NCBI GenBank assembly: GCA_019058275.1
Contig: JAHLVW010000085.1
Span: 1 to 50,853, forward strand
DNA length: 50,853 nt
DNA from: Candidatus Heimdallarchaeota archaeon
GTDB taxonomy: Archaea; Asgardarchaeota; Heimdallarchaeia; JABLTI01
Direction of reading: 5' to 3'
Positions within the stretch are counted from its first letter, which is position 1, and each line of letters opens with the position of its first letter. The translations under genes and the position numbers were made by a program. This document shows, in pieces, positions 3,356-20,379 of this stretch. The notes beneath the pieces were generated by a model that made no database searches, was not told where the DNA came from, and worked only from the letters and a program-made list of their open reading frames with translations.

Positions 3356-3394
3356 TTCACAAACTGAACTTCTAGCTCTTAAAGAAGAAGTGTG
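3356..3394 (+). repeat. Repeat A copy 1 (3' part)
   Basis: ttcacaaactgaacttctagctcttaaagaagaagtgtg matches the 3' half of the consensus. Confidence 0.85.
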
Positions 3395-3447
3395 AGTCCT
3401 GAACATCATTATTTTCTGATGAGTTTATATACTTCTAAATACTATTT

Positions 3448-4134
3448 TTGTCGATGAATAATCATGATTTAACTTTAGAAACAACAACTCTTTGGGATTT
3501 TCCAACTCAAAATTACGGTTCAATCCCTCATGGTGATAATAAATATCCTGGAGTTACTCCTGCTTTTATTATTTGGAATTTATTACAAAGGTATACTGTT
3601 GAAAATGATCTAGTAGTAGATCCCATGTGTGGAAGTGGAACAACAATCGATGTTTGTAAAGAAGAGAATAGAAGAGTTCTAGGTTTTGATATTGTTCCAT
3701 ACAGAGAAGACATAATTCCTGCTGATGCTCGAAAGCTCCCCCTTGTAAATTCAATTGTTGACTTTATTTTCATTGATTCTCCATATTCAAATAATATACA
3801 TTATAATGATCATCCAGACAATATTGGACACATATCTTGTGAAAGTCCAAGATTCTACAAAGAATTAGAAAAAGTAGCTCAAGAATTACATCGAATTTTG
3901 AAAAAGGGGAAATATCTTGCATGGATTATTGCTGACCAAGCAAAAAAAGAAAAATTTACACCTGTAGGATATAAATTATACTCAATACTTGAAAAATATT
4001 TTACACCAGTAGATATAATCTGCGTGACGCGACATAATCAAAAATCTAATACTCCCATATGGCATCATAGAGCAAAAAAATACAATTTTTATCTGCGTGG
4101 ATTTAAATATCTTTTTATTATGAAGAAGCCATAA
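3448..4134 (+). CDS. DNA amino-methyltransferase (N4-C/N6-A type)
   Basis: Motif I DPMCGSGTT followed by a motif IV-like FIDSPY; adjacent to a restriction endonuclease. Confidence 0.85.
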   Translation: MSMNNHDLTLETTTLWDFPTQNYGSIPHGDNKYPGVTPAFIIWNLLQRYTVENDLVVDPMCGSGTTIDVCKEENRRVLGFDIVPYREDIIPADARKLPLVNSIVDFIFIDSPYSNNIHYNDHPDNIGHISCESPRFYKELEKVAQELHRILKKGKYLAWIIADQAKKEKFTPVGYKLYSILEKYFTPVDIICVTRHNQKSNTPIWHHRAKKYNFYLRGFKYLFIMKKP

Positions 4135-4138
4135 TTTC

Positions 4139-4882
4139 TTAATCAATGAACTTCTCTATATCTCCCTTTGGTTTTTCCTTCATTTTCGATTTTATCTTAA
4201 TATCATTAAGTATTAATTTCTGTAAATCATCAATGAAATGCTCGAAAAGCTTCACTCTATCACTTTCCTCTAATACTATATTTGTCAATACATAACTCCC
4301 ATCAAGATCTTCTTCTACAATAGCTCTCCCTTTGCTTGTTGGTTTTTTCCTTGTTAAAGTGCCATCTTCATCTGGTGTTATGAAATATACTTTGATATGA
4401 CTTGTTACTTCACTTTGCAGGAGTTTTAGTTTCCAATAACCCGTTTGAGCAATTCTTTCTCTTAATGTAACTTTACTTGATACAACACAAATTATATTGT
4501 AGCTGTTAGGATCATATATTATAATATCAACATCAGGAAGATGAGAACCAAATTCACCATAATGAATTAGTAGATTCCTTTTTACTTTGTCTAACTCAAA
4601 AGGAAGATTTTTGGTTCTTTCAATTTTATCACTATCAATAGCTCTTAATCCTAATTCTTCTACTTCAGAAAATATAATATGTAGAATTAATTTTTGCATA
4701 TTTTTACCTTTAAATGCTCTCCAACTTTGCTCATGATCCCCACTTTTTGTTGGATTTTTTTCCCAATCTCTTTTGTGCACTTCTTTTGCATCAATCAATA
4801 AATTTGACATATGTTTGTATGCATCTTTACCATATTTTTCTTTATATTCTTCATACATTACTTGCAGATCCTTAAATTTCAC
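4139..4882 (-). CDS. Type II restriction endonuclease, BsaWI-like (CCGG-family PD-(D/E)XK)
   Basis: QSWRAFKGK and PDVD...SSKVTLRERIAQ carry the R-(D/E)R signature of CCGG-recognising enzymes; flanked by two methyltransferases. Confidence 0.8.
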   Translation of the reverse strand: MKFKDLQVMYEEYKEKYGKDAYKHMSNLLIDAKEVHKRDWEKNPTKSGDHEQSWRAFKGKNMQKLILHIIFSEVEELGLRAIDSDKIERTKNLPFELDKVKRNLLIHYGEFGSHLPDVDIIIYDPNSYNIICVVSSKVTLRERIAQTGYWKLKLLQSEVTSHIKVYFITPDEDGTLTRKKPTSKGRAIVEEDLDGSYVLTNIVLEESDRVKLFEHFIDDLQKLILNDIKIKSKMKEKPKGDIEKFID

Positions 4883-4889
4883 TTTTCAT

Positions 4890-6206
4890 CTACTCCTTTT
4901 TTCCAACGACAATATACTCTACAGGATAGGCAATTGTATCAGCATTTTCATTACTAGCAAACCTTCCTGTTTTTTCATCTCTTAATTGTGGCAGCAATTT
5001 AGAATGAATTTCCCTTTTGATTAATCTATCAAATACGAATCCTGTGTTTTGTAAACTCTCAGCAAATACTTCAGCATTAAGAATATCTACTTTCTTTAAT
5101 CTAGTATTTCCAATAACATAACAACATCTTCCGCCTGGTTTTAATATACGATAATTTTCTTCAAAAACCTCTTGCATATCTTTATAGAAAGCTTCAACAT
5201 TACGTGAAAGTTTCTTATCATTTAGTTCTAATTCCTTCACGATCTCCTTAGCTATTTCACTACCCAGCTTGGCATCTTCATACTTTTTGGCTGCTGTTCC
5301 AATGAATTCTTTTCTGTAATCACTTAAACTTTCTGCCAAATCCAACCATATTGTTGATAATTGATGTAAATCTGCATATTCATAACTGGTTACATAAGGA
5401 CTGGAAGTTATTGTTATATCAACAGAATTGTTTTTAGCTGGTTGTTTTCGTGCATCAGATAATTTGATATTGAGCAGCTTTGAGTGATTTGTCTTTACTT
5501 TATCTGAGATTATATTATAAAATGCATTATTTCCTTTTACCATTTTTTTCAAATGTCTTTTCAAAACATCATATGGATTTGGGATCTTCTTCTTCAAATC
5601 TCGAGTAGGTTTGGTACTATCCATAAGCCAGATAGAACAATTCTTTAAGCAATGACTGAAAGCTACTTTGAAGAAATCCCGAATTACTTCATCTTTCTCA
5701 TTTAAGATAACGTTAAGAATTTTACCCAATTGGAATTTCGTTTTTTCCTCAAACCAATAATCTATTCTTTCAAGATGTTTTTCTGGGATATATGGTTCTA
5801 TGTCATCTAGTTGTTCTAGTAAAGTATTTTGGGAATTAATTCTGGCAAGGAAATCCATAACTTTCTTTTTTAGATAACTTGGTTCAATTGGAGTAGCTTT
5901 TACTCGAGTAATAAGATAAGCTATCCTATTTATATCTGTACCATTTGCTTCATAACCACGAGAAATTGCAGAAACTATTGTTGTCCCACAGCCAAAAAAA
6001 GGATCATTAACAGAAGCTTTTGTTACATTAGGATCAATATACTCATCAAGTAATTTTTCTACAATTTGGGGTATAAATTTTGCAGGATATCGATGATAAC
6101 TATGTGTCCATTTTCCTCTTTCAGATGGTTTTGATTCTTTAAAAGACCATTCGTCGTCTATTGCTTTCTTTTGAAAAATATCATTAATTTCTATTGCATT
6201 ATACAT
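4890..6206 (-). CDS. DNA N4-cytosine methyltransferase (alpha class)
   Basis: THSYHRYPAKF, DPFFGCGTT and a distal TSSPY (canonical TSPPY); 7 bp upstream of the endonuclease on the same strand. Confidence 0.85.
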   Translation of the reverse strand: MYNAIEINDIFQKKAIDDEWSFKESKPSERGKWTHSYHRYPAKFIPQIVEKLLDEYIDPNVTKASVNDPFFGCGTTIVSAISRGYEANGTDINRIAYLITRVKATPIEPSYLKKKVMDFLARINSQNTLLEQLDDIEPYIPEKHLERIDYWFEEKTKFQLGKILNVILNEKDEVIRDFFKVAFSHCLKNCSIWLMDSTKPTRDLKKKIPNPYDVLKRHLKKMVKGNNAFYNIISDKVKTNHSKLLNIKLSDARKQPAKNNSVDITITSSPYVTSYEYADLHQLSTIWLDLAESLSDYRKEFIGTAAKKYEDAKLGSEIAKEIVKELELNDKKLSRNVEAFYKDMQEVFEENYRILKPGGRCCYVIGNTRLKKVDILNAEVFAESLQNTGFVFDRLIKREIHSKLLPQLRDEKTGRFASNENADTIAYPVEYIVVGKKE

Positions 6207-6368
6207 TCAATTTACTCCATATTAATTACTACTTGATGATATCCTTTCTAACCATTACTACTAATTAGGATTTTCCTTTTATATGTCTAATATTTAACTA
6301 TGTTAATATTCCAAAATGTAATCTGTTATTTTGTATATTTAAACTAAACATTTAATTGTTGACAAAAT

Positions 6369-6392
6369 CTTAGACCTTAAAGAAGAGGTGTG
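6369..6392 (+). repeat. Repeat A copy 2 (3' core only)
   Basis: cttagaccttaaagaagaggtgtg; the right flank gcagtgattctacttttt is shared with copy 4. Confidence 0.8.
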
Positions 6393-6467
6393 TGCAGTGA
6401 TTCTACTTTTTTATTGAGATTATATCAATTTTTAATAACTAGTTAGAGAATATTACAGTTAAAATTA

Positions 6468-6722
6468 TTGGAAGAAAAAACAATGAACTCTGAATTTGGG
6501 ACTGAATTAAGAATAAAACTTCTTAAAGAGGAATTTTTGCGTTTAATTAAATTATCTCAAAGAGAAATTATTTATAGAGTGAAAAAAACACACCTTTTTG
6601 CTTACGACGGTTTTGTATTTTATTGTGAAGAATGTGAGGATAGTGATTTCGATACAGTAATCGTTGGTTCAGAATTATCAAATATTAGCTTTTTCTATGA
6701 AAAAGATAGAAAGAGAAAATAA
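6468..6722 (+). CDS. Small hypothetical protein, sole cargo between repeat copies 2 and 3
   Basis: ORF fills the module; probable start ATG 6483; contains CEEC. Confidence 0.5.
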   Translation: MEEKTMNSEFGTELRIKLLKEEFLRLIKLSQREIIYRVKKTHLFAYDGFVFYCEECEDSDFDTVIVGSELSNISFFYEKDRKRK

Positions 6723-6753
6723 TAACTCTTCTTTCATATCTTCTTCAAGCGAA

Positions 6754-6830
6754 ATGTTTAGCCAGTAGGTTCTTGCCACCTATGTGTGTCCTTCCCGAAC
6801 TGGACTTCTCGACCTTAAAGAAGAAGTGTG
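6754..6830 (+). repeat. Repeat A copy 3 (full length, 77 bp)
   Basis: atgtttagccagtaggttcttgccacctatgtgtgtccttcccgaactggacttctcgaccttaaagaagaagtgtg. Confidence 0.95.
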
Positions 6831-6879
6831 TTTAGTATGCTCTCTTATTTTGTGCTTAAATTAAAGAAAATTGTTGATA

Positions 6880-7506
6880 CTAAAAGAAAGAATCTTTATT
6901 CTCCTCAGTTATAGGAATGATTCCTTCAGGATGAAGCTTCTGATTGCATTTAGAACACATCCCTAAAGCTTTTAGCCATTCATAGAAATGAACGAGATGA
7001 GCTGCTGTGCCACATAAGCTGCATTTCCCAACGATGTCACCATATAAAATGGGGCGGTTACAGACAAAACACTCAATAATCTCTCTGCCACAAGAGGAAC
7101 AAGAATTACCCCTTCTATCTAATAATTGCTCGCAAAAATAGCACCGATAATACTTCGAAGTGTCCAGTTGCATTCTAGGAAGATAGAGATCATCGGTAAA
7201 GTATTCAATGAATTGAAGATGTTCGGTGGAAATGCTCTCGGAGGGATAGGTAATTCGTTCAATGGAAAAGCCATGTTTTGCACCTAACTCCTTAGCCAAT
7301 TTGCTGGAGGCGGATTGTTTCAGTTCAGAAGCATTAATACAGGTAAAATCATAGATTTTTTGATCAAGTTTCGAAACAATGATTAAGGCAGAATTATCGA
7401 AAAGTATTTTCGGACGGGGAGTGATACGTTTGTGTAAGCCATTGTCTTCAACGAGGAAATATTCTGCTAAATTGATGCGAAATAAGTTGTTATATGTTCT
7501 ACTCAT
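6880..7506 (-). CDS. Zinc-ribbon plus RING-H2-like finger protein (Asgard-type putative E3 ligase)
   Basis: CYFC...CSSC ribbon, then CFVC-x12-CSLC-x4-HLVH-x2-EW-x6-CSKC with the RING Trp conserved. Confidence 0.75.
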   Translation of the reverse strand: MSRTYNNLFRINLAEYFLVEDNGLHKRITPRPKILFDNSALIIVSKLDQKIYDFTCINASELKQSASSKLAKELGAKHGFSIERITYPSESISTEHLQFIEYFTDDLYLPRMQLDTSKYYRCYFCEQLLDRRGNSCSSCGREIIECFVCNRPILYGDIVGKCSLCGTAAHLVHFYEWLKALGMCSKCNQKLHPEGIIPITEENKDSFF

Positions 7507-7719
7507 TGATAACCCTTCAATAGTGATATTTAAGGTTTCTATAATAAAAAAGTATAACGCTAATAAAAATCAAACTGATTCTTTAAAAAGATATAAAATT
7601 CATTATATTGCAACAATATTCTTTATTAGCTCAATTATCATCACATTAATTGTAATAAGAAAAAGAAAAGTAGATTATGGAATATTGAATAAACTTAAAA
7701 TAATGGCGGTCTACCGTTG

Positions 7720-7768
7720 AAGCGTGTCTCTTCTGAAATGGACTTCTAGACCTTAAAGAGGAAGTGTG
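7720..7768 (+). repeat. Repeat A copy 4
   Basis: aagcgtgtctcttctgaaatggacttctagaccttaaagaggaagtgtg. Confidence 0.92.
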
Positions 7769-7823
7769 AGCAGTGATTCTACTTTTTTTTTGTTTTTTAT
7801 TTGCTTAGTTGCACTTAGATTCA

Positions 7824-7844
7824 CTTGAAGAAGAAATGTGAGCA
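7824..7844 (+). repeat. Repeat A copy 4b (degenerate 3' core)
   Basis: cttgaagaagaaatgtgagca versus cttaaagaggaagtgtgagca of copy 4. Confidence 0.6.
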
Positions 7845-8351
7845 ATTGGTTTTTATTGAAAGATAGATATATTTACTGTAAGAAATCTGTGATATGTTAC
7901 ATCTCTATTTAAGTAAATTGGGGGAAATATGAGGATGATTTCAATTTTCATTGTAGTTCTCAAAGTGTTAAATGTCATGCCCTATCCTTATCGTTTCTAT
8001 GCTTTTTCTGGCTTAGGAATGATTGCTTGGTATCTTTTATTTTCTGTTCATGTTGCTTTTTCTCTTTTCTTCCTTTTACGAAACTTTTCTAAGAAATATT
8101 CTTCTTATAATCGCTTAACTACTCTCTCTCTCTCTCACCTTTACAATCACTTCCTTTCTTGCTTTTCTAGCTTCTTTTATTTTCTTCCTTTTATTTTTGT
8201 CTCTCTTTATTGAGTGGCAATACTTCAATAATTATATCCCCGAATTTTTTAAATATCTTTTACCACTCTGTTTCTTCCTCATTTTTTCTCTCAGTTTTTT
8301 CTTTTGGTTAAGATATCGTAAAAAAAACAAAGTTATTAGTAATAATGAAAA

Positions 8352-8375
8352 ACTTATTTCTAAAGAAGATGTGTG
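8352..8375 (+). repeat. Repeat A copy 5 (degenerate 3' core)
   Basis: acttatttctaaagaagatgtgtg, intergenic and in the same orientation. Confidence 0.6.
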
Positions 8376-8524
8376 AGATCGTTGCATCTTTTTGATCAAT
8401 CAATGGGAGAATAGGTTTTGTTATTAAAAATCAAAGAAGATAATCTACCATTATTTCTCATTATGGATACTGAAAATCAATGCTATATTATTAATAATCA
8501 AATTATAGGTTATAAGATGGGTGG

Positions 8525-9181
8525 TTGGCTGGTCATTATTCTTTCAATGCTTTTTACCAATTACATCGATTATTTGATTCACCAATAACTCGAAAAGAAA
8601 TACCTAAACAACTGCTTAAGTTTTTTACTTCATCAACTGAACTACCATCTAATTTCAAGAATTCTTTTTTGATAGGAGATGTCGATGATTATTACCATCA
8701 TGTTATTAATTTACAAATAAAGATAGCAAAAGAATTTTATGCTCCAGTAATTTTGTATAATATCTACTACCAAAATCATGATCTGCGACAAGACATCGAG
8801 CTGATAAATCTTACTTCAAGAGAAGCTTTTCTTATTTTTGCCAACATTTTAGCTAATGATCGTTCCTATTACTATTTCTCTGATACTCCGTTTGAGGATA
8901 CTGATGTAAATTCCGTTTTTCATAAATACCATTTTCTTTCTTATGGCGACGATTATTCTAGGTTGGTTCATTTTGGTCACAATTACTTACTTTACTTGAA
9001 AAATGCATTACTCTCTAGTTCCTTATCCCCCTATGAAATTGCTTTCCATAGAGGTATAAGATTGCTTTGTTTTCTTAGTCACCTCAAACCTGTTCAAGAT
9101 TTTGCTTACCTAATTTTAGAAGAGATTAATAATCATAATGTTTTAACTTTAAATCAAAAAATTATCTACCATTGTTTTTAG
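8525..9181 (+). CDS. Hypothetical protein
   Basis: 218 aa ORF filling the module between copies 5 and 6; no recognised motif. The frame stays open for 28 codons after the TAG, so the stop may be premature. Confidence 0.5.
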   Translation: MAGHYSFNAFYQLHRLFDSPITRKEIPKQLLKFFTSSTELPSNFKNSFLIGDVDDYYHHVINLQIKIAKEFYAPVILYNIYYQNHDLRQDIELINLTSREAFLIFANILANDRSYYYFSDTPFEDTDVNSVFHKYHFLSYGDDYSRLVHFGHNYLLYLKNALLSSSLSPYEIAFHRGIRLLCFLSHLKPVQDFAYLILEEINNHNVLTLNQKIIYHCF

Positions 9182-9313
9182 AATGCTTTAAGCTTTTATT
9201 CAACTTTAGGTTCAAAATTAAATTTAACAGAATATCAATTCCTTGAAAAGTTAAAACAACTTAAATAAGCGATTTTAGGTTTTAATTACTCTATTATAAT
9301 ACTATTACACTAA

Positions 9314-9338
9314 TTCTAGCCCTGAAAAAAGAAGTGTG
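9314..9338 (+). repeat. Repeat A copy 6 (3' core)
   Basis: ttctagccctgaaaaaagaagtgtg. Confidence 0.8.
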
Positions 9339-9600
9339 GTTAATAATAGACTAAAAGGAATTATGCAATTAAAAATTCATGCCAGAAAATACATTAAATT
9401 AATTATTATTTAAAACTTACAATTCTATCTTATTTTGTAAAGGTCAATTTACCAAATTAGTCTGTTAATAGAAAGTTAGGTTTATCTAACTTTTTATATC
9501 TATTATCAAAATTTCACTAGCATTTTTAAAAGGAAAAACTCATTCTACAACGATTTCAAAAAAATAAAAATTTGTTTTATTTTGATGAGGTATAAAAATA

Positions 9601-10833
9601 ATGTTAACTAATATCAGTAAATATATGATGACTAAATCCTTTAAAAAAACAAAATATCAGTTTACGACAATTCCCTCACTGTCATTTAGCAAGGATGTAG
9701 GCATTTATATTCATGTTCCTTTTTGTTATAGTAAATGTTCCTTTTGTCCTTTCTATAAAGAGCTTTATTCAGCTGAACTAAAAGATCAATACATTAATGC
9801 TTTAGTTAAGGAAATATCCTCTGCTCCACTTGAAGGTAATTCAAAATGGATTTATTTTGGAGGTGGGACTCCAAATACACTCACTCTTGAAGATTTCACT
9901 AGAATTATTAACGCTCTCAAATCTAAAATAGAAATAACAAATATGGGAATCGAATTATTGCCTTCTCTTGTAACACAAGAATATCTTAAAGGACTAGTTT
10001 CACTCGGATTCACTAAAATCAGTATTGGTATTGAAACATTCTCAAAAAAAACTCATCAAAAAACAGGACGAAAAAGTGCCGGATACAATCACATTCTTGA
10101 AATTATTACTTATGCAAAATCAATAGGTTTAAGTGTTGCTGTTGACTTAATGGTTGGATTGCCTGAGCAGACAGCTTATGTTTTTGCTACTGATATAACT
10201 AAAATCATCCAGATAAAACCCGACCAAATAACCATCTATCCCTTTATGATAATTCGTGGAGTAAAAGCAACTCCAAGTTGTTCCACAAAAGAGCAATTCA
10301 TATCTATTGAAACTGCAGCTTTAAAATTGCACGAAGCTGGTTATTCACGAAAATCCGTTTGGATTTTTGTTTTGCCAAATACTACTACAAATGATGTCTA
10401 CGATTCCTCAAAAGACGAACTAGTTAATGATTATTATGGTTTTGGTCCTGCTTCTTTCTCAACCTCACACCAATGGAAAGTTGTTAAACCTGAATTATCT
10501 GTATGGTTGAAAAACATTCACAATAATGAATCATTTTCATTTATCGCTCCTAAGAAAAAAAGTACTGATGATTGGAGAAAGTTTGCTAATAGGATTTATG
10601 ATCTCAAACTTGATAATTCGTATCACTTTCCTTTTTATATTAGATTATTTGATTTCCTAATAAAAACAGCAGGATATTATCGAAATGGTTATTTAAGCAA
10701 AAAAGGACGGTATTTTTCACATGAAATTACTAAAGCTGTTGTAGAATCATTACCCTTTCCAGTTCAAAATCCTGATTGTGTGGAAAATCATGAGGATTAT
10801 TTAGTCTACAAAAGGAGTATTCATGATTTATAA
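9601..10833 (+). CDS. Radical SAM protein, HemN/HemW-like family
   Basis: YIHVPFCYSKCSFC (CxxxCxxC), YFGGGTP, DLMVGLP. Confidence 0.9.
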   Translation: MLTNISKYMMTKSFKKTKYQFTTIPSLSFSKDVGIYIHVPFCYSKCSFCPFYKELYSAELKDQYINALVKEISSAPLEGNSKWIYFGGGTPNTLTLEDFTRIINALKSKIEITNMGIELLPSLVTQEYLKGLVSLGFTKISIGIETFSKKTHQKTGRKSAGYNHILEIITYAKSIGLSVAVDLMVGLPEQTAYVFATDITKIIQIKPDQITIYPFMIIRGVKATPSCSTKEQFISIETAALKLHEAGYSRKSVWIFVLPNTTTNDVYDSSKDELVNDYYGFGPASFSTSHQWKVVKPELSVWLKNIHNNESFSFIAPKKKSTDDWRKFANRIYDLKLDNSYHFPFYIRLFDFLIKTAGYYRNGYLSKKGRYFSHEITKAVVESLPFPVQNPDCVENHEDYLVYKRSIHDL

Positions 10834-10947
10834 AAACCAATTGCCACTCATTTTAATCAATCCTAAATAGTATTTCTCGAATCTAAGGTGATTGATTCAG
10901 ATTGGAATTTATGATATATAGGAATCATTCTTTTAAACCCCATTCAG

Positions 10948-11634
10948 TTAAAATGAAAAAGTCGATCCAACACAAACCTGATGGAATTGTTTGGGAAATT
11001 GCTTTTTTAATAATTCTAAATGTCTAGTACAATGACAAGCGCCAATTACTTCAATATTATCAAAATATGAAAATTTATTAAAACCATGAAATCCCCCAAT
11101 AATTGCTTTAATTTTACCTAATTCTCTAGCTTTGACAATAAATTTTTCCAAACCAGGATGAGTGCATCCTACTAAAATAACAATTTCTTTCTTTTCAGTC
11201 TCTAAATAGAGTGCTTATTCTTTTATAAATGAACCAATTTGACCTGAAGAAAAAACATTTTTTTCGATTTTCGTAAAATCTGATACTCCAATAACATTTG
11301 CTTTAGAATAAGTTCGTACAAAGTTATACTTATTTTGATGAGGAACATAAATTTCTAGATTTTTATTATGGGTATAAATAGTTTTTAATACTCCAGAGTG
11401 ATCATGATTATTATGGGAAATTATAATTTTTGTAATTTGTTTTGGTTTAATACTAAGTTGTTTTAAATTGTGAAGTAAAATACGACCATTTCCACCAGTA
11501 TCAAAGAGCAAATAAGTATCAGTCTTTCTATTTAACACTAAAGAAGAAAATCCAAATCCTTCTGTAAATCTTAGTTTTTTACAAAGGTTATCATAGATAA
11601 TAGAAATTTCAAAGATTAGCAATTGACTACCCAA
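10948..11634 (-). pseudogene. MBL-fold metallo-hydrolase (COG1237-like) with an internal stop
   Basis: LFDTG, SHNNHDH, GCTHPG, GGFH and CHCT all lie in one frame, interrupted by TAA at 11215-11217. Confidence 0.85.
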
Positions 11635-11708
11635 AGAATAATTATTTTTATCTCTTAAATAAATTTCACAAATACTTATTTATTTTGATTAATATTTTTC
11701 TAACCAAT

Positions 11709-11771
11709 CATGTCTTTCTCGAACTAGGTTTTTAATCTATAATTGAATTGTCAAGTTAAGGGTTTCGAGTA
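11709..11771 (+). repeat. Left half of repeat A (catgtctttctcgaactagg) joined to a repeat family B copy
   Basis: 11709-11728 resembles cgtgtccttcccgaactgga; 11734-11771 matches 675-717. Confidence 0.55.
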
Positions 11772-11801
11772 GTTAAAAAGTAAAAGGAAACAAAGAAAAA
11801 A

Positions 11802-12382
11802 TCAATCTTTTCTTCGTTTAAGAACAATTATTATTGCAAACAATGCTATACCAGAAAGAAGACCAAAAGTTAAAATGCTATTCCTATTGATTCTGTAAAA
11901 GTTTCAATTATGGTTTCATTAGGAGGAGTTATAGTAACTGGCGTGGAGTTATTGTCACAGGGGGAACAGTGGGATAATCATCTGGATCAAGTGGGTAGGT
12001 TTCTTGAATAATTTCTATATTATCGGGATAATCGTCTCCATCGGTATCAGTATCATTAGGATCCGTTCCGTTTGTAACCTTATCATCATTTAAACCATCC
12101 TGATCACTATCATAATCATTTGGGTTAGTTCCGTTAGCAATTTCATCATTAACTTTTAGGTTATCCGAATCTATGTCCTCACTATTAGAATCAGTAAGAT
12201 AACCATCTGCTCCTGCAATAACTTCTTCACCATCTTGAATTGTATCATCATCTATATCGTCATCTAACGGATCAGTTAAACTAAACAGAACTTCATAACC
12301 ATCTGATAAACCATCATCATCAGTGTCAAAAACTATTGGATTCGTTAGGTAAAAGTTAATTTCATCATAGTCTTCAGTTGAG
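11802..12382 (-). pseudogene. 5'-truncated surface protein with Asp-rich Ca-binding (TSP3-like, DxDxDG) repeats and a frameshifted C-terminal TM anchor
   Basis: Repeats such as DTDDDGLSDG.E and TDP.D.DTDGD. The anchor FGLLSGIALFAIIIVLKRRKD* is in a shifted frame ending at 11802. The ORF-track start MVSTCW is read out of repeat copy 7. Confidence 0.8.
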
Positions 12383-12459
12383 ATGCTCAGCCAGCAGGTA
12401 CTTACCACCTATGCGTGTCATTGCTGACCTGCCCTTCTGCCCCTTAAAGAAGAAGTGGG
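12383..12459 (+). repeat. Repeat A copy 7 (full length, 77 bp)
   Basis: atgctcagccagcaggtacttaccacctatgcgtgtcattgctgacctgcccttctgccccttaaagaagaagtggg. Confidence 0.93.
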
Positions 12460-12497
12460 TGCGTGTGTTGTATCTTATACCTTTGTTAAGCTTTAAA

Positions 12498-12534
12498 GGA
12501 TTGATAATAAGAAGTGAATGTTTTTATAAGCAAG
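12498..12534 (+). promoter_or_regulatory. Archaeal TATA promoter block shared with 15708-15744
   Basis: 35/37 identical to the block upstream of vapB; TTTATA lies 42 bp before ATG 12565. Confidence 0.75.
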
Positions 12535-12564
12535 AAGTAGTAATAATAATGTAAGTGATTGAAG

Positions 12565-12804
12565 ATGGCAGATGATTGGAAAGCACAAATAAGCTCAAAA
12601 GTAACGATTTGTCACGGGAAGGTTTGTATCAAAGGCACTCGAGTTATGATCTCTGTTATCCTTGATTGTTTAGCAGAAGGGATGACTGAGGACGAGATTC
12701 TTATAGACTATCCATCATTAAAGAAGGGTGATGTTAATATAGCCATACAATATGCTGCTTCTCTAGCACGAGGAGAAAGGATTCCAATACGAGCAGAAAG
12801 TTGA
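12565..12804 (+). CDS. DUF433 family antitoxin
   Basis: ICHGKVCIKGTRVMISVIL..LAEGMTEDEILIDYPSL matches the DUF433 consensus. Confidence 0.9.
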   Translation: MADDWKAQISSKVTICHGKVCIKGTRVMISVILDCLAEGMTEDEILIDYPSLKKGDVNIAIQYAASLARGERIPIRAES

Positions 12805-12814
12805 AGGTGGGATT

Positions 12815-13180
12815 ATGAAATTCAAGCTCGATGAGAATATTCCCTTTTCTCTAAAGAAGCATTTAGAATCATCTGGTGACCATCAACTAGAGAGTGTCTT
12901 TCATGAGAAGAAAACAGCTATAGATGATCATTCCCTACTAAAACTATGCTTAAAAGAGCATAGAATACTCATTACACTGGATAAAGATTTTAATAATCCT
13001 ATCCTACATCCCCCAGACTCATTTTATGAAATTATTATTCTTCGTCCAACTACCCAAGGGAAAAAAGCTGTTTCTACCTTATTTGCAAATTTCTTGGAAA
13101 GTTTTGCACTTGAAAAAGTCTTCAAGAAAGTCTTACTTGTTGAACTTGAAAATATAACTATACGTTGGGATTGCGTCTAA
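12815..13180 (+). CDS. DUF5615 family PIN-like toxin (VapC45-like)
   Basis: MKFKLDENIP...D...RILITLDKDF; directly downstream of DUF433. Confidence 0.9.
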   Translation: MKFKLDENIPFSLKKHLESSGDHQLESVFHEKKTAIDDHSLLKLCLKEHRILITLDKDFNNPILHPPDSFYEIIILRPTTQGKKAVSTLFANFLESFALEKVFKKVLLVELENITIRWDCV

Positions 13181-13198
13181 TATTATTTCCTCCTTCTA

Positions 13199-13247
13199 AA
13201 GCGTGTCCTTCCCGAACTGGACTTGTAGCCCTGAAAGAAGAAGTGAG
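13199..13247 (+). repeat. Repeat A copy 8
   Basis: aagcgtgtccttcccgaactggacttgtagccctgaaagaagaagtgag. Confidence 0.93.
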
Positions 13248-13362
13248 TGTAATATTTTTTTTCTATCTTTAATCCTGGTTGTTACAAGTCGAATTTAATA
13301 ATTTTAAGCCTTAAGGGTTGTCAATAGTATATCACATCATTTAAGCTAAATTGTTGTATGCT

Positions 13363-13593
13363 CTATGATTGCTTTGTTAATTTGAAAAACTCTTCTTTTG
13401 ATAATTTGGAGTCATTGATAATTTTTAACAACAAGCCTTTTCCTAATTCTTCTCCTTTGTGTTCAGGAACTACAATTAATCTACCGTCTGGATGATTTAA
13501 AATTACATGACTTCCTTTTCTTCGAGTAATCACAAAACCGATTTTGGTTAAAGTTTTAATAACTTTTTTTGCTGTTAGAGGTCTCAGTTTCAT
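13363..13593 (-). CDS. hicA: HicA family toxin
   Basis: L.KIGF...RRKGSHVIL.HPDGR..VVP.H...LGKG.L..I. Confidence 0.92.
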   Translation of the reverse strand: MKLRPLTAKKVIKTLTKIGFVITRRKGSHVILNHPDGRLIVVPEHKGEELGKGLLLKIINDSKLSKEEFFKLTKQS

Positions 13594-13826
13594 TCATTTG
13601 GAACCTCTATGAATTGAATGCCTACAAAATCCTTTTGTAAATTTCTTTTGAACTCTGAATCAACAGTTTTTAAATAAAGATCTACTGCTTCTTCCATTCG
13701 TTGAATTAATTGACTTAGAGATTTTGCTTGTGTATAACAACCTGGTAGTTCTGGTGCAGAAGCAATAAAATATCCATCCTGGTCTTTTTCGATTAGAATG
13801 GTGATTTTCTTCATATCTGCTGTCAT
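13590..13826 (-). CDS. hicB: HicB family antitoxin (short form)
   Basis: IEKDQDGYFIASAPELPGCYTQAKS...MEEAVDLYL; overlaps the hicA start by 4 bp. Confidence 0.92.
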   Translation of the reverse strand: MTADMKKITILIEKDQDGYFIASAPELPGCYTQAKSLSQLIQRMEEAVDLYLKTVDSEFKRNLQKDFVGIQFIEVPNE

Positions 13827-13900
13827 TTCTTTTACGCTCCTTTAATACTATTACTCGAATATAATATATAAATAAAATTATTTCTTTAAATAACATTCTT

Positions 13901-13957
13901 TATCCATTTATGCAAGTTCTTCCCGAACCGGACTGCTAGCCTTCAAGAAGAAGTGTG
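13901..13957 (+). repeat. Repeat A copy 9
   Basis: tatccatttatgcaagttcttcccgaaccggactgctagccttcaagaagaagtgtg. Confidence 0.9.
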
Positions 13958-14089
13958 TGTCCTTAGTATCAATATTTTTTACATCCATTAATTTGACACT
14001 AGCATTAATATAAGCTAACATTTTTAGTATAATTGCACATGTTCGGAGAAAATTAATAAAAAAGATTCTTTACATAATTACTTGTTAGA

Positions 14090-14545
14090 TTGTTGGTTGA
14101 GAATATTTTGAGAATTGGTAAAATAACTGCTAAAGCAATAATAGAATGTGTTGAAGCAATAGACTATCTTTCATCAGATTCAAAAAAGCCAGTAACATCT
14201 GAAAAAATACATGAGTATCTAAGAATGAGCTTTGAATATGTTAATGATGCAATTGAAGTAGCTATATTAATGCAATTTGTTAGTAATGGTACTAAATTAA
14301 CGCTGTCTTCTGATGGATAGAAGCTAATTAAGTCAACAACAAAACAATCACGAATATTATTTGAAAAACTAATGCAAAAAACACCCCCTACAAAACAATT
14401 GATTAAATTACTACGTGATGGAAATAAACTCAAAGATATAATTAGAAATATTATAAAACGCTATGAGATCCAAGGTAATGAAAAAGAGATTTCATATTCA
14501 TTAAGGAATTTACTAATATTTGCTAACATAATTGGACCTGAATGA
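14090..14545 (+). pseudogene. Winged-helix-like protein with an internal TAG; paralog of 20380-20799
   Basis: TAG at 14318-14320 where the paralog has AAG; the frame continues to TGA 14543-14545. Confidence 0.8.
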
Positions 14546-14699
14546 GTTATTAACAAAGAATAAACAGGTGATAAAACTCACTATCGCCTTTTTTATCATT
14601 TGTATTTATTTTCTGAGCATTGATTATATAAGTGTGAAACCTAAGTATCATTTCTTTTTATACGAAATTTATAAATGAGTTAGAAACAAATTATTTTGT

Positions 14700-15515
14700 A
14701 TGCACAAAGAAAAGAACTATCATACTAGAAAGTTTTCACCTACAAGAATGATCCTTGCAGACTACAATGCTGTAGCTGCTTCTTTAAACAGGGTTTTTGC
14801 GTTAATTGAAATTGATATTACAGACGCTTTAGCAAAGATAGAGGAAATTGAGAAACAAGAAAACTATAAAGTCTCTATGACTGCTTGGGTGGCTAAATGT
14901 CTTAGTCAAGCTGTTATGGAAAATAAACGTTTGAACACTTTTCGTAGAGGACGAAAACTTGTGGTTTTTGATGAGGTTGACATAAGTATAATTATCGAAA
15001 TTACTACTAAAGCAGGTAAAAAGATTCCCTATAATTATGTTATCCGTAAAGCAGAAACAAAAAGTGTTAAAACTATTACAGACGAAATACGATCTTATCA
15101 GGATAAAAAAATCAATGAAAAGGAACAACTTACAAGAGATACAACTCCTTATATGTCGTTTTACACCCTCTTACCAAAATTTTTCAGAAGATTTGTAATA
15201 AGAAAAATGATAACAAACCCTTTTAGATTAAAAAAATTGATTGGTACAGTTGGTATAACTTCGCTGGGAATGTTCATTAAAGGTCAAGGCGGTTGGCTCG
15301 TACCTTTTTCTGATAAATCTTTGAATGTTGCTCTTGGAGGAATTAAGAATCACGCTGTTGTGCGAAATGGTAATTTAGAAGAACGAAAACTTCTTTGCAC
15401 TACTTTTCTGATAGATCATGATATCATAGATGGAGCTCCTGGAGTGAGATCCATTTCTAGATTATCAGAATTGATGAGGGATACCTCCTACCTAGAGGAC
15501 CTAGAAAAGATTTAG
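14700..15515 (+). CDS. Stand-alone 2-oxoacid dehydrogenase E2-type acyltransferase catalytic domain
   Basis: GTVGITSLG and DHDIIDGA (HxxxDG); no lipoyl domain. Confidence 0.85.
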   Translation: MHKEKNYHTRKFSPTRMILADYNAVAASLNRVFALIEIDITDALAKIEEIEKQENYKVSMTAWVAKCLSQAVMENKRLNTFRRGRKLVVFDEVDISIIIEITTKAGKKIPYNYVIRKAETKSVKTITDEIRSYQDKKINEKEQLTRDTTPYMSFYTLLPKFFRRFVIRKMITNPFRLKKLIGTVGITSLGMFIKGQGGWLVPFSDKSLNVALGGIKNHAVVRNGNLEERKLLCTTFLIDHDIIDGAPGVRSISRLSELMRDTSYLEDLEKI

Positions 15516-15619
15516 AGAAAAAAAGACCTTTTCTTTTTTTCATTGGTCACTGAACTAATTTCACAATAAAATAAAAAACCACAGAAGGAAAATTTATCTT
15601 ATAATTTATCAAAAAAATA

Positions 15620-15681
15620 TACTTACCACTTCAGCGTGTCCTTTCCGAACCGGACTGCTAGCTCTTAAAAGAAGAAGTGTG
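15620..15681 (+). repeat. Repeat A copy 10
   Basis: tacttaccacttcagcgtgtcctttccgaaccggactgctagctcttaaaagaagaagtgtg. Confidence 0.93.
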
Positions 15682-15707
15682 TGATTTGACCATCATTGAT
15701 ATTTTAG

Positions 15708-15744
15708 GGATTGCTAAGAAGAAGTGAATGTTTTTATAAGCAAG
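15708..15744 (+). promoter_or_regulatory. Archaeal TATA promoter block shared with 12498-12534
   Basis: ggattgctaagaagaagtgaatgtttttataagcaag; TTTATA lies 43 bp before ATG 15776. Confidence 0.75.
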
Positions 15745-15775
15745 TTAGAAGTATAATTATTGCAGAGGTTGTAGT

Positions 15776-16009
15776 ATGGCTGAAAAAACGATCAAAGTAT
15801 CTGAAGAAGTTTATGCAATTTTGGAATCCTTACGTAAAGAGAATGAATCATTGGAAATGTTGCTCTTACGTTTATTACCCATAAAAGATACAAAAATAAC
15901 AAAAGATATGTTTTTCAGCAAATGGATTGGCTCCGATGAAGAAATTGACTCTATTTTCACAATTATTAATTCTACTTGGAAAGATTGGAGTAATTCATTA
16001 CAAACATAG
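15776..16009 (+). CDS. vapB: VapB family antitoxin (archaeal DUF217-like)
   Basis: KTIKVSEEVY..L..L....ES....L.RL; upstream of a PIN toxin. Confidence 0.8.
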   Translation: MAEKTIKVSEEVYAILESLRKENESLEMLLLRLLPIKDTKITKDMFFSKWIGSDEEIDSIFTIINSTWKDWSNSLQT

Positions 16010-16023
16010 GAGAAATAAAAGCT

Positions 16024-16416
16024 ATGTTTTGTTTAGATAGTGATAGTCTTATTGCTTATCTTCGAGGCAGTCAAACTGCTAAGGAGAGAATTACCGAATT
16101 TGAGAAACAGGGATTGGTATTTATTACTCCTATTAGCGCTTACGAATTATATTTTGGAGCTTATTTATCAAGTGAATCAGCAAACAACCTTCAAGCAGTC
16201 TCTGCTTTACTATCCTATTTCTCAATTCTTCCATTCTCCCAGAACGAAGCAAAACTTGCAGGTGAATATTCTGCCCTGTTACAAAAGGGTGGTTTATCCA
16301 TAGGTATTCGTGATTGTATGATTGCTAGTATAGCAAAAACACATAATAAGATCATTATAACTCGAAATACTAAACATTTCTCCAGTATTCCGAATTTGAA
16401 GATAGAAAAATGGTAG
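16024..16416 (+). CDS. vapC: VapC PIN-domain toxin
   Basis: LDSD..I, E L..G, D.MIASIA, TRN.KHF..I..L.IE.W. Confidence 0.92.
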   Translation: MFCLDSDSLIAYLRGSQTAKERITEFEKQGLVFITPISAYELYFGAYLSSESANNLQAVSALLSYFSILPFSQNEAKLAGEYSALLQKGGLSIGIRDCMIASIAKTHNKIIITRNTKHFSSIPNLKIEKW

Positions 16417-16431
16417 CTATTATTATTTCCA

Positions 16432-16487
16432 ACCACCTAAGCGTGTTATTACCGAACTGGGCTTCTAGCCCTTAAAGGAGAAGTGTG
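16432..16487 (+). repeat. Repeat A copy 11
   Basis: accacctaagcgtgttattaccgaactgggcttctagcccttaaaggagaagtgtg. Confidence 0.93.
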
Positions 16488-16711
16488 GGTCCTGAATATT
16501 TCATTGGATAATTAATTTAGTTTAATCTTCTGTTAACCAATCATCTTGATCTAGCTTTTCTAGCTTATTTAATAAGTTGATTAGAACTATTTTCTCATTT
16601 GCTACTGGGAATAATTTCTTAATCTTGTCCTCATTAAGTAACTCTTAATAAACGATAAAAAGATCCAATTTATGTTTTTGCTAATAACATAGTAAAGAAA
16701 AAAAAGAGAGA

Positions 16712-17419
16712 TTAGAAGAGCATTTTCTCTTCCGCATGAGGATTTATCATTAGTATTTGTTCATTCATTGCTTTTTGCCAAATATAGTCGGTATAAATGA
16801 AATAGAAACTTAATACCATTCCTGTTAATAAGCTAGCTACTCCTAAAGCAATGAATAATCCCATTAACCAAAACTCGGAGTATACCATTGGAAGTATTAG
16901 TAGGTTCAATAAAACTGTTCCAATTAACATCATAGAAAACATAAGAATTGATAAGCTTATTTGCTTCTTCCCTGATATTGGCATAGTTTGATTTTTCACT
17001 GAATTATATCCCAAATACTTGTAGAATTTATCATATTTCCAATATCTAACAATAATCATGAAAAATGGAATAAAGGTAGAAAGAATTATGTAAATTAACA
17101 CATTATTTTTGTCAGTTTTTAATGATGGTCCTTCTTTAGGAGGTCTTAATTGTACTAAGTTATTCAGATCTTCAAAATTGAAGTATAAATAGATCAGATA
17201 AATTGGACTAGCTACATAAGATAATAACCACCAGATTAAGAAATTCCTTCTAACTAATACAGGCAAGTTGGGTTGATAAGGTGTCGGTTGAGGTTCAAGT
17301 ATAGGAATACTCTTCTTTTCCAATCGATTGAGTTCAGTCCCACAATTCATACAAAACAAATGATTATCTTGATTCTCCTTTCCACATTCTGGGCAATATT
17401 TCAAATTTGTTCTCCTCAA
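16712..17419 (-). CDS. Zinc-ribbon membrane protein (DUF4234-like TM region)
   Basis: N-terminal CPECG...FCMNCG followed by about 4 hydrophobic segments. Confidence 0.75.
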   Translation of the reverse strand: MRRTNLKYCPECGKENQDNHLFCMNCGTELNRLEKKSIPILEPQPTPYQPNLPVLVRRNFLIWWLLSYVASPIYLIYLYFNFEDLNNLVQLRPPKEGPSLKTDKNNVLIYIILSTFIPFFMIIVRYWKYDKFYKYLGYNSVKNQTMPISGKKQISLSILMFSMMLIGTVLLNLLILPMVYSEFWLMGLFIALGVASLLTGMVLSFYFIYTDYIWQKAMNEQILMINPHAEEKMLF

Positions 17420-17484
17420 ATAACATACACTAAATACTAGCTTGTATTTAAGCTAGTAAGTATTTAAAATGTACCAATCCTAGT

Positions 17485-17561
17485 ATGCCCAACCAGCAGG
17501 TACTTCCCACTTCAGCATGTCCTTCCCGAAATGGACTTCTAGCCCTTAAAGGAGAAGTATG
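17485..17561 (+). repeat. Repeat A copy 12 (full length, 77 bp; last copy seen)
   Basis: atgcccaaccagcaggtacttcccacttcagcatgtccttcccgaaatggacttctagcccttaaaggagaagtatg; 38/77 G+C. Confidence 0.95.
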
Positions 17562-17735
17562 TGGGAGTTTTCTACTTTTTTCTTTTTTTTACTAAATTTA
17601 TCTTTCGTCTACTGAGTTATTCAACTAAGGATTTCTATTAGATAAGTAGGTTGAGATTTTGTTATAAGATAATTAATACTGAATTATTTATATTCAATAA
17701 ATCAAAAATAAATATATGACTATTGGGGGAAAATA

Positions 17736-19676: not shown

Positions 19677-20379
19677 TTCCTTCTATTTTTTTCCTCTCAA
19701 ACTGTTTCTAAACTTTGGAGAGAGATTGTTTAATATTACTTGAGACTATAGATACTCATCATATATATTATCTTATCTTGATGAATTACTATATGATTTT
19801 TTTCTTGAAGCGACTTGATGATATCATTAATTGTATAGAGACCACAATATCATGCAAAAGGTTTGAAGATTTTTTTAGCAAAGTTCGTATAAGCAAGATC
19901 TTGAAATAAAAAAATGACTTTTAAATTACAATCTCATATTCTTCCCGTAATACATCAGTTCATAGATTCCCGTAGATTCATACTGTTCTTTCTTACCATC
20001 TTTTTCTACAACCAATTTTGATTTTCCTAAAAATCGGTGATACTAGGGATTTTTACACATTTGGTTGAAAAATAAATGAGGGCTGTTCCCTAATAGTAAA
20101 TTTTGTAGTACTAAATCTTTATTTCGTTGAAGATTCAATGTGAATTTAATTTTATCATCATCATAATTGAACTCTAATGAATTAGAGACCATTTTTTTGG
20201 TCTTAGGATGTTTTTCAGTTTGTTTATAAGTAACAGTTATTGTTTTAGTATCATCTGTTAGAATGCTTGTCTTATCTAATAATATCATGTATGACATTTG
20301 TTTTTGTCTGCTTGCGAAGAAAATTAATAAAAGTGAATCTAATACATAATTACTTGTCTGATAATGGGTTTGGAATATT

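Follow-up and report, generated by a model that had tools for sequence, protein, structure and literature searches.

Sedentary chromosomal integrons and CALINs, including the integrons of archaea (bioRxiv 10.1101/2022.02.06.479319), form long one-directional arrays of cassettes of about 1 kb in a site-cargo-site layout. Their sites are nearly alike within a genome, toxin-antitoxin and defence genes abound in their cargo, and strains differ by whole cassettes. The array described here shares these traits. Unlike integrons, however, it has an rRNA gene end copied as its site in place of a folded attC, it lacks both IntI and attI, its cargo lies on either strand and is often multigene, and a housekeeping RNA gene serves as its anchor. 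Islands, some of them in tandem arrays, that sit at the 3' ends of stable RNA genes such as those for tRNA and tmRNA also resemble it, with an intact target, 3' direct repeats and one site that is reused so that the oldest insert lies farthest from the gene. A phage site in ffs is an example of a non-tRNA target for integrative elements (PMC12540744). In contrast to those islands, the target here is the 23S tail and its processing stem, a genome has about 60 inserts (median, 1.3 kb), no insert carries an integrase and tails inside the row seem to be used again. Xer-dependent elements (IMEX) and pdif modules likewise carry cargo without a recombinase of its own, but the core here is not a recognisable 11-6-11 dif site, and pairing it with an enzyme is hypothetical. 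Also, the sites here are all co-oriented, whereas those of pdif modules alternate.

Variable DNA beside rRNA genes has been described as well. HVR2 of SAR11, in the 23S-5S interval, is a variable accessory island directly behind the 23S gene, but it forms a single block flanked by two conserved genes, and internal copies of the 23S tail were not described (PMC4053759). HeimM2 of Ca. Heimdallarchaeum, likewise of the Heimdall group, is a mobile element exactly beside a single-copy rRNA gene (16S), but it consists of one 8-kb element carrying a homing-endonuclease-like gene, and neither tail repeats nor an array was described (Wu et al. 2022, PMC8813620). A limited literature search found no prior description of a 23S-tail cassette array.

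Thirteen matches to the core CTTAAAGAAGAAGTGTG (at most 3 mismatches) were found in the window, which is the whole 50,853-nt stretch of DNA analysed. All were on the plus strand, and they ended at 3394, 6392, 6830, 7768, 7840, 8375, 9338, 12459, 13247, 13957, 15681, 16487 and 17561. The chance expectation was 0.33 matches, and 13 were reached in 0 of 100 shuffles. The original prediction, made from the sequence, had listed 13 copies in one orientation, and its ends agree with ours except for 7844, which is 7840 here. It had also seen no copies in the remaining 33 kb, and both the core search and a profile search were empty for 17.6-50.9 kb. Eleven of the 13 copies were clear profile matches (20-82 bits), and of the copies ending at 7840 and 8375 only a core relic is left, with 2 and 3 mismatches, respectively. 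Neighbouring copies are 72-3121 bp apart. The copies are intergenic, overlapping predicted ORF ends by a few bases at most. The GC content of 49% given for the repeat is correct for the copy ending at 17561, within a range of 0.22-0.53 for the last 77 bases of each copy (window overall, 0.316). The predicted cargo was recovered with Pfam, as seen in Table 1; the "E2 domain" is that of a 2-oxoacid dehydrogenase acyltransferase and not a ubiquitin E2.

Table 1. Features of the window from left to right
Feature	Coordinates	Strand	Content and basis
NB-ARC/TPR STAND NTPase gene	761..3274	+	Left of first tail; Pfam NB-ARC + TPR
Tail copy 1	3356..3394	+	33 nt, trailer only, exact core; b-type head next at 3395-3409
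R-M cassette	3395..6370	.	Pfam: methylase 3448-4134 (+), BsaWI-type endonuclease 4139-4882 (-), methylase 4890-6206 (-)
Tail copy 2	6371..6392	+	22 nt, core only; then a-type head
Cassette	6393..6743	+	84-aa ORF 6468-6722, no family
Tail copy 3	6744..6830	+	89 nt including 54 nt of 23S
Cassette	6831..7710	-	208-aa zinc-ribbon protein at 6880-7506; weak Pfam DZR match
Tail copy 4	7711..7768	+	49 nt; then a-type head and T-run at 7769-7790
Two-cassette block, divided by tail copy 7	7769..12370	.	Pfam: small ORFs, 218-aa unknown protein, radical SAM 9601-10833, metallo-beta-lactamase-fold fragment 11215-11634, 159-aa ORF
Core relics inside the block	7824-7840 and 8359-8375
Tail copy 7	9314..9338	+	25 nt, core with 2 mismatches
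Tail copy 8	12371..12459	+	91 nt
Cassette	12460..13169	+	DUF433 (12559-12804), DUF5615/PIN-like (12815-13180); Pfam
Tail copy 9	13170..13247	+
Cassette	13248..13886	-	HicA (13363-13593), HicB (13590-13826); Pfam
Tail copy 10	13887..13957	+
Cassette	13958..15602	+	271-aa protein 14700-15515, 2-oxoacid dehydrogenase acyltransferase domain; Pfam
Tail copy 11	15603..15681	+
Cassette	15682..16419	+	VapB (15776-16009), VapC PIN (16024-16416); Pfam
Tail copy 12	16420..16487	+
Last, oldest cassette	16488..17482	-	235-aa zinc-ribbon membrane protein 16712-17419; Pfam Zn_Ribbon_1
Terminal tail copy 13	17483..17590	+	77 nt, then native-type trailer end (TTCTAC + T-run); array far end
Clostripain-family (C11) peptidase	17736..19676	+	First gene past array; Pfam

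The repeat turns out to be a spare duplicate of the 23S rRNA gene's end, and not the different, unfamiliar site that had been proposed. The genome has a single native 23S rRNA gene (G000:C98:98488-102769; Rfam, 2340 bits), and its last bases plus the trailer can be aligned with each of the 61 other copies at ~72-100% identity. Copies extend leftward for 16-150 nt, and nearly all of them stop at one point, J, which lies 35 bases beyond the 23S gene at the outer end of the 35-nt trailer. Each copy holds the full 35-nt trailer or just its last 16-33 bases, and most also hold up to 115 bases of the 3' end of the gene. In the processing stem of pre-23S RNA the trailer forms the 3' strand, and its 11-bp helix with the leader stops exactly at J. 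In three other genera, the sole other genomic match of the trailer was the leader, on the opposite strand. When the copies were aligned, the 18 bases preceding J were 79-98% conserved, with one exception at 70%. Part of this conservation is ascertainment because the copies were found by means of the core. Conservation was about 50% in the 23S-derived part and dropped beyond J. In its conservation, the core acts like a site.

Genome-wide, 62 copies were found on 6 contigs. A further 115 tails in 37 loci came from other MAGs and metagenomes, giving 174 of 177 tails co-oriented overall and a median spacing of 1.28 kb. The predicted site-cargo-site layout in a single orientation was upheld. Copies scattered in both orientations were looked for, and a MITE/REP-like dispersed repeat was rejected since 62/62 copies in this genome lie in arrays and are co-oriented within every cluster. 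Contigs C98, C38 and C75 are linked through identical contig ends, C99 is a second branch off the C98 end, and C35 is linked to C80 by a 91% identical stretch only. These overlaps suggest one row of >100 kb that starts at the 23S gene and ends at window base 17,590. The row, probably >100 kb long, begins directly behind the only 23S gene, which is on another contig than the window, and bases 3356-17590 of the window are its far, oldest end. Left of base 1, where the recombinase had been thought to lie possibly, is the rest of the array and then the 23S gene, probably ~100 kb away. The tail-repeat array also explains why these MAGs are broken into many contigs at this locus. A row of this kind behind the 23S gene is a feature of Heimdall-group Asgard archaea.

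The far end of the row is old. The C11 peptidase is conserved in the genus, with orthologs 69-71% identical in three species. The 235-aa zinc-ribbon protein has ~70% identical orthologs in G003, G005 and G007, beside or a few kb from the C11 peptidase ortholog, and a decayed counterpart of tail copy 13 can still be aligned at the same place in all three. A last cassette, a decayed tail and a flanking gene common to four species mean that the row is old. Old tails decay, including the core.

Whole modules were found to be gained, lost or replaced between strains and between species with breakpoints at the repeat, as predicted. Public contigs showed a different cassette in place of block 7786-12371 in the main strain of run X3. 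There, depth was 0-7 in bins 8005-12006 vs 112-402 in bins flanking the block, and contigs ran into other DNA after 7772 and ahead of 12386. Run X1 had the block 7769..12370 at the depth of its flanks. Among X5 contigs, the match began at 3378, inside the core of tail copy 1, a break was seen at 6388 and one contig ended at 16502; Logan contigs break at any repeat and, thus, breaks at tails are partly expected. X5 contigs with the R-M cassette lacked the STAND NTPase gene, which is probably cargo of a cassette starting past the contig end. The start of the R-M cassette (3395 on) is also found on contig C35 after a different tail, with 91% identity. Within the cassette 13958..15602, positions 14044-14526 are an 88% identical copy of 20315-20798 in the window. 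G007 has an ortholog of the 208-aa zinc-ribbon protein (76% identical) with its own tail, and this cassette is followed directly by the acyltransferase cassette (71% identical ortholog of the 271-aa gene), while five additional cassettes intervene in this genome. Different genes occupy the position of the VapBC cassette in G007. In one duplicated cassette, homology runs to J with divergence beyond, and in two others the match begins 17-33 nt ahead of J. Homology between the duplicated cassette at C98:128209 and its counterpart on C99 begins ~50 nt past J, showing that not all breakpoints are at the core.

A recombinase had also been expected at the array end, but none was found at either end, and the search of ~375 kb of arrays turned up neither an integron integrase nor an attC-like site, and neither a reverse transcriptase nor a recombinase borne by an array. 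Pfam Phage_integrase or Resolvase had no match on any array contig of this genome, Phage_integrase had none on the tail-bearing contigs of ten relatives, and a tblastn search of another 265 kb of arrays gave no recombinase match. The one candidate enzyme found is a single-copy 352-aa XerA-like tyrosine recombinase (C55:205722-206777), whose gene is not adjacent to the array. It is ~64-70% identical in six other genus members, with a 58-aa fragment in a seventh, and has no close relative outside the genus, as identity falls from 63% to 34% among 5.8 billion proteins. These XerA-like proteins score 115-120 bits (117 in this genome) on XerA model NF040815, below the cut-off of 220, and canonical XerA of a sister family scores 270-288 bits. 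Among relatives with a solved structure, P. abyssi XerA (4A8E) is the best. Because the genus conserves no tyrosine recombinase other than a Xer-like one, it is plausible that a host enzyme acts in trans. G004 has tails but yielded no such gene, and G003 has the gene but yielded no tails; neither MAG is complete. The protein may simply be the chromosome-dimer resolvase of the genus. By eye, AGAAGAAGTG matches the reverse complement of CAGTGATTCT at 7 of 10 bases with an a-type head and at none with a b-type head. No clear inverted-arm pair around a 6-8 bp spacer was seen in the core.

Our best reading, to which we give a probability of roughly 0.5, is that accessory cassettes, each ending in a 23S tail, are exchanged at a ~20-bp core by a trans-acting enzyme. 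Cassettes would be gained, lost and swapped by recombination at this core, CCTTAAAGAAGAAGTGTG, at the outer end of the processing stem. Integration would be Campbell-fashion, with a single-tail circle entering at any tail or at the native site, and excision would take place between two tails. The enzyme would be encoded elsewhere, and the derived XerA-like protein is the one candidate found. Tails at the old far end would go out of use and decay. A more specific version, which we consider unlikely, is a second, independently evolved "integron" in one Heimdall-group Asgard genus, where a far-encoded, Xer-derived tyrosine recombinase would recombine at the outer helix of the pre-23S stem and thereby capture, stack and shuffle cassettes behind the only 23S gene. 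This would parallel IntI, another Xer relative, and its use of attC.

A site-specific recombinase is the putative agent, and homologous recombination between tails is a live alternative, possible though not likely. No dedicated enzyme would be needed, as the tails would serve as portable homology; RadA recombination among tails and with the DNA of relatives would delete, insert and swap blocks, and new tails would arise by rare duplication. This would fit the finding of no recombinase in or beside ~375 kb of arrays, the left breakpoint beyond J in one duplicated cassette and the absence of obvious recombinase-type site symmetry. Many tails are 60-150 nt long with 80-99% identity, which is sufficient for homologous recombination, and hypervariable islands between conserved rRNA genes are known, such as SAR11 HVR2 (PMC4053759). 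However, 14 copies retain ≤27 nt, a short stretch for homologous recombination to act on efficiently, and their cores are near-perfect all the same. Left truncation of tails is common and right truncation is rare, and orthologous cassettes retain private tail variants across species without homogenisation. RadA recombination also leaves unexplained why every new block has a tail ending at the same base.

Another possible explanation, although improbable, is a graveyard of viruses, plasmids or other integrative elements that targeted the 23S tail with their own integrases, as is done with tRNA genes, and then decayed. The intact target gene at one end and direct repeats of that gene's 3' part, the oldest of them lying farthest away, would all be expected, and phage sites are known in other stable RNA genes such as ffs (PMC12540744). 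The median block of just 1.28 kb and the empty integrase and recombinase searches above argue against this, as does a scan of viral contigs for the core, which gave only three chance matches in bacterial-type elements.

It is more improbable still that the tails act as RNA or terminators, pairing with the rRNA leader in read-through transcripts or insulating cassettes, and were retained on that account. Each tail has the 3' half of the processing stem and often a T-run. The best-kept tail bases are the loop, which is bulge-helix-bulge-like, and the outer helix of the processing stem, and a-type heads, which follow J, end in TTCTAC, which pairs with GTAGAA of the leader, and a T-run. Such roles would not explain cassette turnover at tails or the decay of ageing tails and their cores, the tail alone folded no better than shuffled sequence, and no reverse transcriptase was found to convert RNA events to DNA.

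Finally, a true integron or integrase-less attC cluster (CALIN) with unusual attC sites would share the co-orientation of sites, the small size of cassettes and the toxin-antitoxin and defence genes carried, but it was rejected, in line with the original view that the repeat is not attC, because the site is part of 23S rRNA, neither R'' (RYYYAAC) nor R' (GTTRRRY) boxes were found, with no GTTRRRY near any of the 13 window junctions, folding of either strand as single-strand DNA is not attC-like (z = -1.0 to +0.5 vs shuffles), and the genome's best match to the IntI model TIGR02249 was 38 bits vs a cut-off of 265 and lay off the array contigs.

If cassettes are exchanged at the core, the row would be a gene-capture platform on the end of a ribosomal RNA gene, in the archaeal group closest to eukaryotes. 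The row holds a few per cent of the genome as fast-changing defence, toxin-antitoxin and accessory genes. It shows that the integron-style site-cargo-site design can arise on a quite different site. With its core, candidate enzyme and strain variants, it offers a concrete system for learning how such platforms start and how Asgard archaea acquire foreign genes.

The repeat that delimits the array was found to be a copy of the end of the 23S rRNA gene. A repeat search with alignment placed one repeat family at 13 sites in the window, and the 17-base core CTTAAAGAAGAAGTGTG gave 13 matches at up to 3 mismatches, all on the plus strand, against a chance expectation of 0.33. The 13 co-oriented copies of the original prediction were thereby confirmed, with one shift in position, from 7844 to 7840. 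A profile built from the clear copies scored 20-82 bits at 11 of the 13, and the copies at 7840 and 8375 were core-only relics. The same profile found no match in the remaining 33 kb, as had been claimed. The window is the entire contig C80 of a 4.12-Mb genome (118 contigs, 32% GC), in which the profile search found 62 copies, confined to arrays on six contigs and co-oriented inside each cluster. The scatter of a MITE- or REP-like family, which would have contradicted the prediction, was not seen. The predicted cargo agreed at the level of Pfam, except for the "E2 domain", which proved to be a 2-oxoacid dehydrogenase acyltransferase domain.

Coordinates of the features discussed (C80 is the window; C98 carries the 23S rRNA gene; C55 lacks arrays)
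Feature	Contig	Positions	Strand
Array	C80	3356-17590	
Ends of repeat copies	C80	3394, 6392, 6830, 7768, 7840, 8375, 9338, 12459, 13247, 13957, 15681, 16487, 17561	+
Unlike stretches in X3	C80	4128-4353, 4495-4909	
208-aa zinc-ribbon cassette	C80	6831-7710	
Stretch of ~55 bases with weaker core	C80	7786-7844	
Block replaced in X3	C80	7786-12371	
HicAB cassette	C80	13248-13886	
Acyltransferase cassette	C80	13958-15602	
Relic gene copy in cassette	C80	14044-14526	
VapBC cassette	C80	15682-16419	
Last tail	C80	17483-17561	
Insertion in X1 contigs	C80	18170	
Counterpart of relic, beyond array end	C80	20315-20798	
AAA_assoc_C plus winged-helix match	C80	20380-20847	+
Three direct repeats	C80	44834-45189	
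Stretch matching right end of C96	C80	49637-49936	
Short-chain dehydrogenase core pair	C98	55152-56172	-
23S rRNA gene (Rfam)	C98	98488-102769	
LAGLIDADG ORF	C98	100717-101274	
J	C98	between 102804 and 102805	
XerA-like gene (locus L013:5720-6778)	C55	205722-206777	-

Every copy aligns to the bases immediately before a fixed point, J, which lies 35 bases beyond the end of the only 23S gene of the genome, with ~72-100% identity and a left reach of 16-150 bases. The 35-base trailer forms the 3' side of the pre-23S processing stem: pairing with the leader gives three helices (5, 6 and 11 bp) around a loop that resembles a bulge-helix-bulge, the 11-bp one terminating exactly at J. Three genomes from other genera (two are closed) each have a single copy of the tail plus trailer, and nothing else in them matches it except the leader, on the opposite strand. 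Therefore, the repeat is the tail and trailer of the 23S rRNA gene rather than an attC site, a MITE or an unknown site. The original prediction of a different, non-attC site held in that no R''/R' boxes were found at the array junctions and single-strand folding of the tails was no better than that of shuffles, but the site is not an unfamiliar one. An attC-like hairpin, in which the b-type head and GATGCTCAG of the tail would form a long inverted repeat, was rejected on the same folding result and because both parts are present in only a few copies. Rfam found nothing on the window at the gathering threshold, or on 3-18 kb at E up to 5; an isolated tail is too short to be matched by the rRNA model. 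ARAGORN also found nothing on the window. The 23S gene exceeds the Rfam model by ~1.3 kb, and the extra sequence, which includes the LAGLIDADG ORF, is presumably an intron. A 228-aa gene just upstream of the 23S gene was set aside as a member of a multi-copy membrane/zinc-ribbon family that is not tied to the rRNA gene.

Conservation across the 61 non-native copies is 79-98% over the 18 positions that precede J, with one position at 70%; it is ~50% in the 23S part and drops after J. Truncation is common on the left and rare on the right, and 14 copies retain 27 bases or fewer. A reverse-transcription origin, with its fixed 3' end and variable 5' truncation, was considered and rejected, as no reverse transcriptase (RVT_1) was found in the genome. 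The head, the bases right after J at the start of the next cassette, is a-type, that is, the native trailer end, in ~48 copies, b/c-type (..CCTG..CATC) in ~81 and of other types in ~39. Heads mostly move with the cassette on their right; as an exception, one duplicated pair begins matching only ~50 bases past J. Behind several a-type heads in the window and on contigs C35, C75 and C98, the same ~55-base stretch ends with a second, weaker core (GAAGAAGAAATGTG), a recurring tail-plus-mini-tail arrangement.

Identical contig ends join C98 to C38 and C38 to C75, C99 branches off C98 as well, through the same 141-base end, and the start of C35 is 91% identical to 3356-3526 of the window. These links suggest a single row that starts at the 23S gene, exceeds 100 kb and ends at position 17590 of the window, with two rows as the alternative. 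The right end of C96 is 97% identical to a stretch near the right end of the window, either as a link between contigs or as a repeat. Elsewhere in the genus, 8 of 10 species have the core with its flank, versus none of 30 genomes from other genera of the class. Among 185,579 species genomes it was found only in Heimdall-group/Asgard MAGs, one of which bears the label Bathyarchaeia. Ten species-genome loci and 27 metagenome loci added 115 tails; overall, 174 of 177 tails were co-oriented, at a median spacing of 1.28 kb (interquartile range 0.8-2.1 kb). None of 21 whole contigs from MAGs and metagenomes had terminal overlaps and, thus, no circles were seen. Outside the main array, 42 kb upstream of the 23S gene, two cores in the opposite orientation surround a short-chain dehydrogenase gene, and the adjoining genes look like array cassettes as well; either a rearrangement or an ectopic mini-array is present here.

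At the far end, the last tail is followed by TTCTAC and a T-run, an a-type ending that is also found behind the native 23S gene in two other MAGs (G008 and G010) and that pairs with the leader GTAGAA. The 235-aa zinc-ribbon protein of the last cassette and the next gene, a clostripain-type peptidase, have ~70% identical orthologs in three MAGs; the two genes lie side by side in G005 and are separated by 1.8-3.5 kb in G007 and G003. Intergenic DNA beside the 235-aa gene in all three can still be aligned to a decayed tail. The common last cassette, peptidase gene and decayed tail show that the row predates these species. Its oldest part is the most distant from the rRNA gene, which is the order to be expected from inserts accumulating at that gene or close to it. 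One cassette holds a relic copy of a nearby chromosomal gene, given a 484-bp stretch with 88% identity to part of a gene beyond the array end; a plus-strand frame there matches a winged-helix domain and AAA_assoc_C. In X1 contigs, the peptidase gene has an in-frame insertion of 15 bases. Farther right are three 67-base direct repeats (67-72% identity) that read like TPR units.

The original prediction called for a strain comparison, and whole modules were found to differ. In G007, nothing separates the 208-aa cassette, which has a tail variant of its own, from the acyltransferase cassette after it; the window has five more cassettes between these two, and in G007 other genes take the place of VapBC. 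Three public sequencing runs were compared as Logan contigs; no RNA data set was among the runs listed. In X3, depth over one block was 0-7 (bins 8005-12006) versus 112-402 in the bins beside it, with different DNA behind 7772 and before 12386; in X1, depth of this block equalled that of the flanks. X5 contigs start or stop matching at tails (3378, 6388, 16502 and 17479), with other DNA beyond. Since Logan contigs break at any repeat, breaks alone are weak evidence, and the depth contrast and foreign flanks are stronger. Joints with 20-43 letters on the shorter side (417>6771 and 7790>378, for instance) were left out of the breakpoints; they are most likely repeat cross-matches, and no tail is visible at 378-419. 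The main strain of X3 kept the restriction-modification cassette, with unlike sequence of nearly equal length in place of the BsaWI-type endonuclease gene and the last part of the methylase gene next to it, which looks like an allele swap inside the cassette.

Beyond the anatomy, site identity, restriction to arrays, age and cassette-wise differences that we observed, we infer that a trans-acting enzyme carries out exchange at the core, at about even odds (roughly 0.5). The short-chain dehydrogenase cassette is present twice, on C98 and inside the array on C38 (81% identity), and the homology extends to J and ends there. In two other duplicated cassettes, the match begins 17-33 bases before J. 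Homologous recombination between tails is the main rival, a possible explanation of these differences to which we give distinctly lower odds.

A recombinase had been expected outside the window, and none was found at either array end. Of the recombinase genes in the genome, six of the tyrosine and two of the serine type, none is on a contig with arrays. Searches found neither a Y1 transposase nor an integron integrase in it (best integrase score 38 bits against a cut-off of 265), and a true integron is unlikely. Pfam Phage_integrase had no match on the tail-bearing contigs of ten relatives, tblastn found no recombinase in 265 kb of further arrays, and neither Pfam nor PHROGs gave a recombinase match for the unknown proteins of a 10-kb cassette on C98. 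A graveyard of integrase-bearing elements is also unlikely. So is a role of the tails at the RNA level. The LAGLIDADG endonuclease was rejected as the array enzyme because its only copy in the genome (tblastn) is the ORF inside the 23S intron. A core scan of viral contigs gave three hits, all read as chance; two share one context, an element with PcfJ/PcfK genes of bacterial type.

The lead for an enzyme acting in trans is a single-copy, 352-aa XerA-like tyrosine recombinase. It is ~64-70% identical in six other members of the genus, with a 58-aa fragment only in a seventh, and its neighbourhood is partly conserved in another species. In a large protein collection, identity falls from 63% to 34%, leaving it without a close relative elsewhere. 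It scores ~115-120 bits with the archaeal XerA model, versus 270-288 bits for the canonical XerA of a sister family, and has ~75 extra residues in the N-terminal half compared to P. abyssi XerA. Unlike in the sister family, no canonical XerA was seen in the genus. The link to the arrays is a correlation over one lineage, no core-like site was found near the gene, and the protein may simply be the dimer resolvase of the genus.

A limited full-text literature search found no description of 23S-tail arrays. The nearest items were archaeal integrons, the HVR2 region that follows the 23S gene in SAR11 (PMC4053759), the HeimM2 element next to the 16S gene (PMC8813620) and a phage site within ffs (PMC12540744). 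To these arrays, the window contributes the far end, the evidence for age, the strain-level replacement and a candidate enzyme.
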